The notes under the pieces were generated by a model that was given only the letters and a program-made list of their open reading frames with translations, did not search any database and was not told where the DNA came from. A program made the translations under genes and the position numbers. A stretch of DNA of 64,000 nt from Mobula hypostoma (Eukaryota), in NCBI RefSeq assembly GCF_963921235.1, contig NC_086108.1, positions 33,296,001 through 33,360,000 of the forward strand. The letters run 5' to 3'. Shown here piece by piece: positions 20,501 to 22,289 of the stretch (positions are counted from its first letter, which is position 1; the number at the start of each line of letters is the position of its first letter).

Positions 20501-22289
20501 AAATTAAACCCAAACTCAGCCCAAGCTCTTCAAGATTCAGATAACTGGCTGCAGTGTCCCCCATGTATGTACCTGTGTCGTATTTATCTGGGGCGCCTCA
20601 GGCTCTGTTCCAAGAGCTCTGACTGGAAGGAGAGTGGCTGTAGTATACAGCTCCCCTTTGGCTTTACTGCCAGGATTACCCAGGCTGTTCCCCTGGCCTG
20701 TCTACCGCCCCCCCCCCCCAACACCTCCTTGGTGTTCACCATCACTGTCAGCTTGTGCAGCCCATTACCCTGGCTCTGGAAGACACATCACTACAGCAAA
20801 GTCAAACAGCCCCATTCTATCTTATCATTAAGCAGCCTGTCCCAGCCAAGGGACGACTTCTGCCCATGGCTGACCCAAACCAAAACCATAATTTTTCCTC
20901 ATCAGTTCAGATTATAGTCCGCACTTGTAGGAGTATCACACAGAATGCTCCAGGAACTCAGTAGGTCAGCAGCACTAGGTCAGGCAGCACCTATGGAAGG
21001 GAATAAGCAGTCAACATTTCGGAACGACAAGAGTCTCAGCCTGAAAAGTCAACTGTTTATTCTGCCGGACCTGCTGAGTTCCTGCAGCATTTGGTGTGTT
21101 GCTCTGGATTTCCAGCATCTGCAGAATCCCTTGCCTTGTAAGAATATATCATTACTACAAATGTAAAATATATTGGTCAGATTATTGTGTTTGGGTCTCA
21201 CCCAGTGTTTGGTGATCTACTCGCACTATCCATTTAGAGATACTGGACATGCAAAACCAAATATATCCTACCTCGTACGCTCAGTGCCTAAGCAAGGAGA
21301 ACTGTAGCTGCCTTGTAGCACATCTTCCACAGTCCCAAGGGTACAGTGAAGAGGAGGAGGAATGCTATCTACAGTATACTTGGCTCTAAGATATAGGCTG
21401 GACAATTATCAAAGTAAGGAAAAGTTACTAGTGAACACAGCAGGCCAGGCAGCATCTCTAGAAAGAGATACAGTCAACGTTTCGGGCCAAGACCCTTCAT
21501 CAGGACTAACTGAAAGAAGAGCTAGTAAGAGATTTGAAAGGGGGAGGGGGAGATCCAAAATGAAAGGAGAAGACAGGAGGGGGAGGGTTGGAGCCAAGAG
21601 CTGGACCCAAGATCCTGTCCCATGATGCTCTCATATCCCTTTTGCCAATCAACTGTCCAGCTCTTGGCCCTATCCCTCCCCCTCCTGTCTTCTCCTATCA
21701 TTTTGGATCTCCCCCTCCCCCTCCCACTTTCAAATCTCTTATTAGCTCTTCTTTCAGTTAGTCCTGACGAAGGGTCTCAGCCCCAAACGTCGACTGTACC
21801 TCTTCCTGGAGATGCTGCCTGGCCTGCTGTGTTCACCAGCAACTTTCATGTGTTGTTTCAAATTCCAGCATCTGCAGATTTCCTCGTGTTAAGGAATTGT
21901 AAGGTTATTTTGCATTTGATTGGGCAGTGGTGGGAGGGTGCGAACATGTTCAATTGTATTGAGACTTCTTGCAGCCGAACCTGTTTTCCCACAGAGATTT
22001 GACTCGCGCTCATCGAATGGCAGCTGCTCTGGAGGCAGGAACATGTTTCATAAACAACTACAATGTTAGCCCAATTGAGATGCCTTTTGGAGGATACAAA
22101 ATGTCAGGTATGGAGCATTTTTGCTTTTCTGGAAACACTTGTTTACAAAACAGACTTGTGGCCAACTGAAAGGTGATTCCAATTCTCATTGCAGGATTCG
22201 GGAAGGAGAATGGAATGGCAGCAGTGGAATATTATACACAGCTGAAGAGTGTGTATGTGGAAATGGGAGATCTGGAATGTCCATTCTAA
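5540..22289 (+). CDS. ALDH9A1: Aldehyde dehydrogenase 9 family member A1 (4-trimethylaminobutyraldehyde / betaine aldehyde dehydrogenase), 5'-partial. Exons: 5540-5669, 8012-8146, 10068-10264, 13529-13669, 15651-15839, 17897-17984, 19956-20097, 21995-22107, 22195-22289 (TAA)
   Basis: Nine AG/GT-bounded exons (130, 135, 197, 141, 189, 88, 142, 113, 95 nt) join in frame. Motifs include [48 protein letters not shown], catalytic Glu in TLELGGKSP, catalytic Cys in [37 protein letters not shown] and the C-terminus [10 protein letters not shown]. The tail-to-tail position next to MGST3 matches known vertebrate synteny. Confidence 0.97.
6150..6650 (+). mobile_element. CR1-clade LINE 3' fragment (degraded)
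   Basis: Similar to the 3' part of the 16140-17530 CR1 (RPHLEYC/SPHYRKD-like region, TTCTATGT-like tail). Confidence 0.65.
11330..11850 (-). mobile_element. CR1-clade LINE 3' fragment
   Basis: ORF 11785-11976 contains the eroded CR1 RT C-terminal segment (...[17 protein letters not shown]). A CATAAGA-type tail lies at the left end. Confidence 0.75.
11851..12745 (-). mobile_element. Tc1/mariner transposon fragment (degraded transposase)
   Basis: Minus-strand [12 protein letters not shown] (GRP motif between the HTH domains), a KHGG-type segment near 12110-12130, and MQQDNDLK (QDN catalytic motif) in ORF 11785-11976. Confidence 0.8.
12750..12917. repeat. (CA)n microsatellite enclosed by a perfect 17-bp inverted repeat; MITE-like
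   Basis: CTTCTGACTCAAAGACA (12750-12766) and TGTCTTTGAGTCAGAAG (12901-12917). ACCT lies on both outer flanks. Confidence 0.8.
16140..17530 (+). mobile_element. CR1-clade LINE (HER1-like), 5'-truncated RT with frameshifts, in ALDH9A1 intron 7
   Basis: [70 protein letters not shown]; (TTCTATGT)n-like tail. Confidence 0.95.
18760..19015 (+). mobile_element. tRNA-derived V-SINE/HE1-like SINE; related copies at about 33065-33240 and 41560-41880
   Basis: B-box-like GAGTTCAATTCC, a central GGTTTTCCCCAGGTGCTCTGGTTTCTTCCC V-domain-like segment, and a TAAA tail. Confidence 0.65.
19780..19863. mobile_element. 84-bp hAT MITE (related copy at about 41360-41440)
   Basis: TIRs CCGGGGTTCCCAAC / GTTGGGAGCCCCTG; 8-bp TSD CTCTAAAT / CTCCAAAT. 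Confidence 0.8.
21422..21889. mobile_element. Fold-back Penelope-like terminal-repeat pair (non-coding) in ALDH9A1 intron 9
   Basis: 21422-21606 is the reverse complement of about 21655-21847. Candidate TSD TAAGGAA (21415-21421, 21890-21896). Same family as 51116-52795. Confidence 0.85.
21472..21507 (-). ncRNA. Minimal type-I hammerhead ribozyme (Penelope-type) with an intact catalytic core
   Basis: Minus strand reads AGUC-CUGAUGA-A-GGGU(CUUG)GCCC-GAAAC-GUU-GACU: stem I AGUC/GACU, core CUGAUGA/GAAA, stem II, palindromic ACGU in place of helix III, and a GUU cleavage triplet. Confidence 0.75.

Follow-up and report, generated by a model that had tools for sequence, protein, structure and literature searches.

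Related systems

The closest described systems are the minimal hammerhead ribozymes of Penelope-like elements (PLEs). The available part of Cervera and de la Pena 2014 (PMC4209133) describes the motif class, its opposite-strand pairs, weak cleavage by dimers, and its occurrence in the Xena, Poseidon and Neptune elements of fishes. The anole Poseidon hammerhead, in the accessible sections of Frangieh et al. 2024 (PMC11167929), requires protein for cutting and is dispensable for insertion in vitro, and the part of Craig et al. 2021 (PMC8557442) seen here calls hammerhead function in PLEs unclear. Head-to-head PLE insertions with an inverted 5'-truncated arm, palindromic junctions, microhomology and a 30-40 bp tail on one end, all as found here, are known from the portions of Arkhipova et al. 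2013 (PMC3846280) and Craig et al. 2021 that were at hand. Retrozymes are derived from PLE terminal repeats (pLTRs) by Li, Clavereau and Pollet 2026 (10.64898/2026.07.22.740005), whose available text includes one chondrichthyan.

The motif repeated in the window analysed here (the whole stretch of DNA, 64 kb long) is a further case of this published kind. It resembles the PLE motifs in the available part of PMC4209133 in being type-I, with a 4-bp helix I and no helix III loop, and in occurring mostly as single or opposite-strand copies, and it differs in a helix II of 4 bp compared with 7 to 8 in Schistosoma and, in its young subfamily, in having G10.1-U11.1 in place of the published G10.1-C11.1. 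Intact-core matches number 65,202 here, against about 4,000 in coelacanth and about 9,000 in Xenopus in the same source, with counting methods that differ. One of the paper's two supplement files holds no shark, skate or Callorhinchus entry. The Anolis Poseidon element PAc (PMC11167929, available part) shares with the element found here two reverse transcription (RT) start sites that define the tail, a hammerhead upstream of that tail and, on our reading, unprocessed RNA as the dominant template. The PAc open reading frame (ORF) starts inside stem II, whereas the ATG lies about 140 nt past the cut site here, and, unlike PAc, the element here encodes a protein with a CX4CXXC linker; the part of PMC11167929 at hand gave no description of a 5' truncation hotspot for PAc.

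Tens of thousands of young copies amount to a map of where RT starts and stops. What appears new here, judged from sequence and predicted folds, is the genome-wide junction map and a tandem array that lies elsewhere in the genome, outside the window; beyond the known head-to-head PLEs, junctions are counted genome-wide and cluster at the hammerhead 5' edge. We found no report of a truncation hotspot at PLE hammerheads, or of back-splicing at their edge, in a literature search largely limited to freely accessible papers. Map and array would seem to bear on the question of hammerhead function in PLEs: the 13- to 15-fold excess of junctions at the ribozyme 5' edge, with no excess at the cut site, carries the in vitro anole result over to genomic insertions in a different clade, and an intact element (1016 aa) becomes available for direct tests along with a candidate newborn retrozyme. 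The reading that we favor, with a probability of roughly 0.65, is that the window copies are 5'-truncated and likely inert 3' ends of a Neptune-type element that probably copies itself from uncut RNA.

Hammerhead motifs in the window

Signed positions count from C17 (= 0), which immediately precedes the predicted cut, and the motif runs from -31 to +4. All ten sites of the original prediction fit the 36-nt layout on re-examination, the one placed at about 28715-28751(-) having exact coordinates 28716-28751. A Hamming scan returned 13 window sites at 13 or fewer mismatches and none in 30 base shuffles of the window, and an nhmmer profile built from 12 window copies gave 22 window matches, 13 of them over the motif, and none on reversed sequence. 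An Rfam search of the window yielded 33 matches at E up to 5, with no hammerhead family among them; the top matches were miRNA models on the 21.5-kb inverted repeat, all under their gathering scores, and were rejected.

The layout is the predicted minimal type-I one, with the extra nucleotide after A9, G10.1-C11.1 and palindromic 15.2/16.2 given in the available part of PMC4209133; the core boxes CUGANGA and GAAA and a UH triplet are present, and helices I and II are able to pair. In intact copies, an ACGU palindrome does take the place of helix III, but it is undamaged in just 5 of the 12 window copies. Loop II was said to vary, and variants are indeed seen, but much of this (CUUG, CUCA) is CpG decay of CUCG and not free variation. 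The copy at 21472-21507(-), singled out for its full core, is the sole one of 12 tabulated with no change at any of the 11 core positions that were checked; it has GUU in place of GUC as its cleavage triplet. The CpG-type decay ascribed to many of the other copies explains part of their damage (G8A or G12A in 6 of 11) but not the remainder: A6C, in 2 of the 11, is a subfamily trait, and the other core changes (C3G, U4G, G12C and others) are one-off.

The complete motif, with its predicted cut at 21476/21475, lies antisense to a host gene in a head-to-head insertion of two 5'-truncated pLTR arms (21421..21889; arms 21421-21606 minus and 21613-21884 plus), within an aldehyde dehydrogenase intron and with a probable decayed target-site duplication. 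The second arm carries a motif with G12C at 21760-21795(+), sense to the gene. Another head-to-head insertion, young and 1.7 kb long (51114..52795), has a 14-bp target-site duplication with one mismatch; its minus arm retains a CX4CXXC linker and GIY-YIG domain (51510-52028) beside motif 51179-51214 (G8A), and its plus arm has motif 52664-52699 (U4G). Two short head-to-head insertions join their arms at the 5' edge of the motif: 27930..28154, with motif 28020-28055(+) (C3G), arms meeting at -18 and -34 and a 14-bp target-site duplication, and 28657..28873, with motif 28716-28751(-) (C3A and G12A) and a 13-bp duplication. The older head-to-head insertion at 436..2134, of the A6C subfamily, has motifs 496-531(-) and 2034-2069(+) and a GIY-YIG remnant at 1000-1404(+), so that such remnants stand upstream of two window motifs in all; a 25-nt pyrimidine-rich tandem expansion lies at 1716-1880, inside its pLTR.

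The other copies are an old 5'-truncated one at 25921..26766(+), whose motif 26664-26699 has G12A and U16.1C; an old rearranged one at 27165..27868, whose eroded motif 27230-27265(-) was absent from the earlier list; an old solo pLTR end at 36179..36282(-), with three core changes in motif 36247-36282; and an eroded solo pLTR end at 44291..44382(+), with motif 44291-44326, also absent from that list. Window copies are head-to-head pairs or single. Action as dimers, as first suggested, is published for the class, but the paired window motifs lie on opposite strands and the dimer model is therefore inapplicable to them in cis; the window copies are likely inert.

The carrier element

The placement of the motif inside Penelope-like terminal repeats was borne out by full-length copies elsewhere in the genome, which have it in the pLTR of an element encoding RT and GIY-YIG. 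A genome search with an RT fragment returned 59,010 candidates, 150 of which were scored. Of 20 loci chosen because they have long ORFs, 5 contain two same-strand motifs about 3.5 kb apart (3514 nt), both direct pLTRs carrying an intact motif (L083, L084, L085, L088 and L100). At L083, whose direct repeats are identical at 610 of 614 nt, one 1016-aa ORF contains an RT, a CX4CXXC linker and, at the C-terminus, GIY-YIG. Its Pfam matches (RVT_1, E 3.6e-5; GIY-YIG, E 0.001) are both below the curated cut-offs, its atlas matches reach 0.96-0.98 with RVT_1/HTH_animal/GIY-YIG clusters, and a PDB sequence search with the full ORF gave 0 matches. The Neptune label rests on the vertebrate host and on the linker ahead of the endonuclease (CKRNKCYTC), of the CX2-5CxxC type that the available part of PMC8557442 gives as common to Neptune and Nematis. 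The window motifs lie in the 3' pLTR of this Neptune-type element.

Genomic load and constraint

The very large load of ribozyme motifs first inferred from the window can now be given as measured numbers. Across 3.48 Gb, a strict intact-core pattern matched 8,582 times and a relaxed one 65,202 times, with 0 control matches for either, and scaling from 72 motif-covering copies in 51 stretches of 10 kb at round coordinates puts relics at about 490,000 (bootstrap 370,000-620,000), or some 0.5 million. Core and helices are kept in 16 of 70 motif-covering copies of the round-coordinate sample, and the core is complete in 62 of 76 young sampled copies. Our insertion survey covered 1.57 Mb, made up of the 510 kb sampled at round coordinates, a further 264 kb surrounding the window and 800 kb of one contig start chosen where matches had already been listed; near-intact same-strand neighbors within 4 kb formed 4 pairs in this 1.57 Mb, with no tandem unit.

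The proposed check of stem covariation came out negative, with no frequent two-sided change in 10 stem I/II pairs of 232 aligned copies, and divergence within the family may be too low for any to be seen. G10.1-C11.1 turning into G-U is the sole common stem change, with C at 11.1 in 95 copies and U in 93 of the 232. In the youngest subfamily (L083:8030-4379), C11.1 to U is fixed, so that helix II either closes with a G-U pair or takes an alternative A-U register.

Copy by copy, the core decays much like its flank (0.018 versus 0.024 in young copies, 0.141 versus 0.124 in old ones), as expected of dead copies. Compared across subfamilies, the motif is better conserved than its flanks. In four upstream-defined subfamilies (41, 18, 19 and 6 of 170 non-inverted copies, the other 86 belonging to no cluster and not being used), variation touches 5 of the 31 constrained columns and 24 of the 58 downstream ones (p=0.018), so the motif serves active lineages in some way. 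Four of the five varying columns are CpG sites and the fifth is A6C, which 17 of 18 copies of one subfamily carry. Changes at A6 would be expected to cripple hammerheads. The A6C subfamily has amplified widely, both in the window (496-531 and 2034-2069) and in 39 of 156 older sampled copies.

Insertion anatomy and the 5' junction hotspot

Insertions have direct or inverted pLTRs with a tail at one end, and target-site duplications are seen at three window insertions. The 1.57-Mb survey yielded 98 young arms, with 88% or more identity to L083. The 3' ends of these arms fall into two clusters, at +60 to +72 and +95 to +101, with one long and one short tail in 23 of 23 inverted pairs. Of their 5' ends, 44 lie in -45..-16, 2 in -75..-46 and 1 at +1; the 44 hotspot arms comprise 28 inverted junctions, 5 solo copies with a target-site duplication and 11 unclassed, although the arms of one pair are not independent. 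Older copies show an inverted junction within 40 nt of the edge in 32 of 156.

Genome-wide, junctions were counted with patterns requiring two wrong letters upstream of an anchor (broken, as opposed to intact). At the motif 5' edge, 8,787 were broken and 35,199 intact (20.0%); the corresponding counts were 475 and 28,565 (1.6%) in a control window 22 nt upstream and 1,694 and 90,279 (1.8%) at the cut site, anchors and denominators differing somewhat among the three. About 8 of 100 listed edge matches resemble older subfamilies and, together with the unequal anchors, this brings the edge excess nearer 13-fold than 15. No pile-up of 5' ends at the cut site was found in these counts. Of 100 cut-site junctions listed, 28 appear, when counted by hand, to start at +1; microhomology to the other arm, or an internal deletion, would account for some 17 of them, and the 28 may include a small class made from cleaved template.

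Since junctions crowd at the 5' edge of the motif and not at the cut site, the template is likely uncleaved RNA. The edge coincides with a predicted hairpin that would hide the catalytic box. In the young subfamily, the tract upstream of the motif is predicted to pair with -27..-16, in a hairpin spanning -46..-16; the predicted probability of helix II is 0.02 in genomic context and 0.97 without the upstream strand (RNA from -33). The upstream/core duplex is predicted at -10.9 kcal/mol, versus -7.1 for shuffled sequence. Two older groups show no such advantage (A6C, -6.8 versus -6.1; P, -7.3 versus -7.6), nor was covariation of the hairpin strand with the core found across subfamilies, own duplexes in A6C and P not exceeding swapped ones in strength.

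On the favored reading, the element protein would start RT at the two tail sites and read through the uncut ribozyme, but would often stall or switch template in the hairpin formed by the upstream pyrimidine tract and the CUGANGA box, with short head-to-head insertions as the product. By prediction, this hairpin also holds the ribozyme in an inactive fold, and any cutting would depend on the element protein or on a tandem partner and be limited to rare transcripts, tandem or full-length. One result does not follow from stalling alone. Upstream pLTRs that lead into the ORF start halt in the hotspot less often (3/16, from 19 loci of which 3 ended earlier, and 0/5, versus 44/85), which is not predicted by a pure stall and fits either an RNA 5' end at that place or selection for processive complexes.

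Alternative explanations

The least improbable of the alternatives, though still an unlikely one, is the classical model proposed in PMC4209133 (available part), in which dimeric hammerheads cut tandem transcripts into units and these, ligated into circles, normally serve as template. Because re-ligation of a circle removes the end at the cut site, our junction counts would miss this. In 6 of 20 loci, full-length copies continue past the start of the unit and into part of a further repeat upstream, as expected from a circular or tandem template, but tandem genomic transcripts would give the same read-through without cleavage. The core is kept across most subfamilies, yet the A6C subfamily amplified anyway. 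Three full 310-nt units of the array described below differ only at C17, the cut-site base, but C17 is also a CpG site. Isolated monomer and dimer are both predicted to fold into inactive rods, at minima of -28.3 kcal/mol compared with -9.5 for a hand-drawn active dimer, and hammerhead mutants insert normally in vitro in the available part of PMC11167929.

We consider it improbable that the edge simply marks the transcript 5' end, near which tail-initiated RT would run off to leave short copies, the long ones coming from tandem or circular templates. Second-pass pLTRs do halt in the hotspot less (pooled, 3/21 versus 44/85; Fisher p=0.003, with arms not independent), but long copies may simply select for processive complexes. 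Among the five solo copies that have target-site duplications, three terminate at -30, and the young subfamily has an initiator-like TCAGTT at -37..-32; older subfamilies without TCAGTT nevertheless have edge junctions. A start site within the pLTR is reported for Penelope and Chlamys in the part of PMC8557442 seen here. Against a single transcript end, junctions spread over 30 nt, matching the extent of the hairpin, and the recurrent ones are fold-back or microhomology products of a quasi-palindrome.

Splice-like site and a 310-nt tandem array

A pyrimidine tract and YAG stand directly ahead of the core in every subfamily examined (L083:7873-7894 and equivalents) and resemble a 3' splice site overlapping helix I. 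The tract is 80-95% pyrimidine, and the AG is present in 40/41, 16/18 and 17/19 copies of three subfamilies with differing upstream sequence.

Elsewhere, L241:674-1936 (minus) is a tandem array in which a unit of 310 nt (-33 to +276), made up of pLTR and ORF start and with a complete core every time, is repeated 4.1 times. The array starts at +66 and has an 11-bp target-site duplication. The bases just ahead of the unit are CAG, and those just behind it are GT in 20 of 24 natural contexts. A second contig (G000:C50:58412481-58412821) has this junction two times, with a spacing of 310 nt. Among the joints listed from two sets of sequencing-run contigs there was neither a GT-AG joint nor the array junction, which bears neither way on splicing. 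Tandem units with a complete motif in each, the mark of a retrozyme, are found at L241 and not in the window copies. The array fits the working definition of a non-LTR retrozyme in the available part of 10.64898/2026.07.22.740005 and is pLTR-derived; unlike those retrozymes, it has units more than 98% identical to the parent element and a back-splice-like junction. From its sequence, L241 looks like the product of rolling-circle copying of a back-spliced circle, and it is a candidate newborn retrozyme.

These observations would be drawn together by a scheme that we regard as doubtful, in which the hammerhead is a locked switch: the upstream strand, doubling as a 3' splice site, would pair with the catalytic box, keep the ribozyme off in copied RNA and trip RT into short head-to-head insertions, until splicing or back-splicing at the AG unlocked it and the element enzyme rolled around circles to make new retrozymes, the 310-nt array having been caught at birth. 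The rival that makes splicing itself the gate is harder still to credit. It places a 3' splice site at the 5' edge, with splicing or back-splicing removing the blocking strand and rolling-circle RT turning the spliced circles into retrozyme-like arrays. The conserved tract and YAG, the array with its CAG/GT junction, target-site duplication and second locus, and a predicted helix II probability that rises to 0.74 in the array-junction context all agree with such a gate, as does a Drosophila virilis Penelope intron that ends at helix I (PMC4209133, available part). The splice-like AG is also part of helix I, however, so its conservation is doubly explained; the donor is weak, its G being mostly A in related runs; and the two array loci may share one origin. 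Junctions exactly at -33 number only 406 genome-wide after filtering, and the 100 listed of these show no recurrent spliced first exon, their recurrent upstream 10-mer being an inverted arm.

Finally, it is highly improbable that the likeness to a hammerhead is incidental and the motif a protein-binding or DNA-level signal that never cleaves: compensatory pairs are lacking, the motif folds no better than shuffles (z -0.3 to -0.6) and a downstream block at +19..+38 is kept equally well (3/20 columns vary), but the published motif is matched at all 11 core positions, in both helices, in the extra base after A9 and in the palindrome, N7 and loop II take the variation (3/5 varying columns), and the anole PLE hammerhead cleaves, with C3/G8 rescue, in the available part of PMC11167929.

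Host gene and other features of the window

The host gene (5516..22110, plus strand) is given for context, with approximate exons near 5.5, 8.1, 10.1, 10.2, 13.6, 15.7, 20.0 and 22.1 kb. The best solved-structure match of its product is 4-trimethylaminobutyraldehyde dehydrogenase, and the gene is presumably ALDH9A1. The inverted insertion at 21421-21884 would give a duplex of about 185 bp in an intron of the host pre-mRNA, which would mask the sense motif and could be an editing substrate. Remnants of other RT elements, unrelated to the hammerhead family, lie at 16142-17385 (+), 43078-43907, 49231-49767 and 57559-59780, with Pfam RVT_1 at 16142-16696 and 57562-58059. An open frame at 3494-3862 (+) has no Pfam match at E 0.1, and we take it to resemble the end of a DNA-transposon transposase. 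A (CA)n microsatellite occupies 12760-12900.
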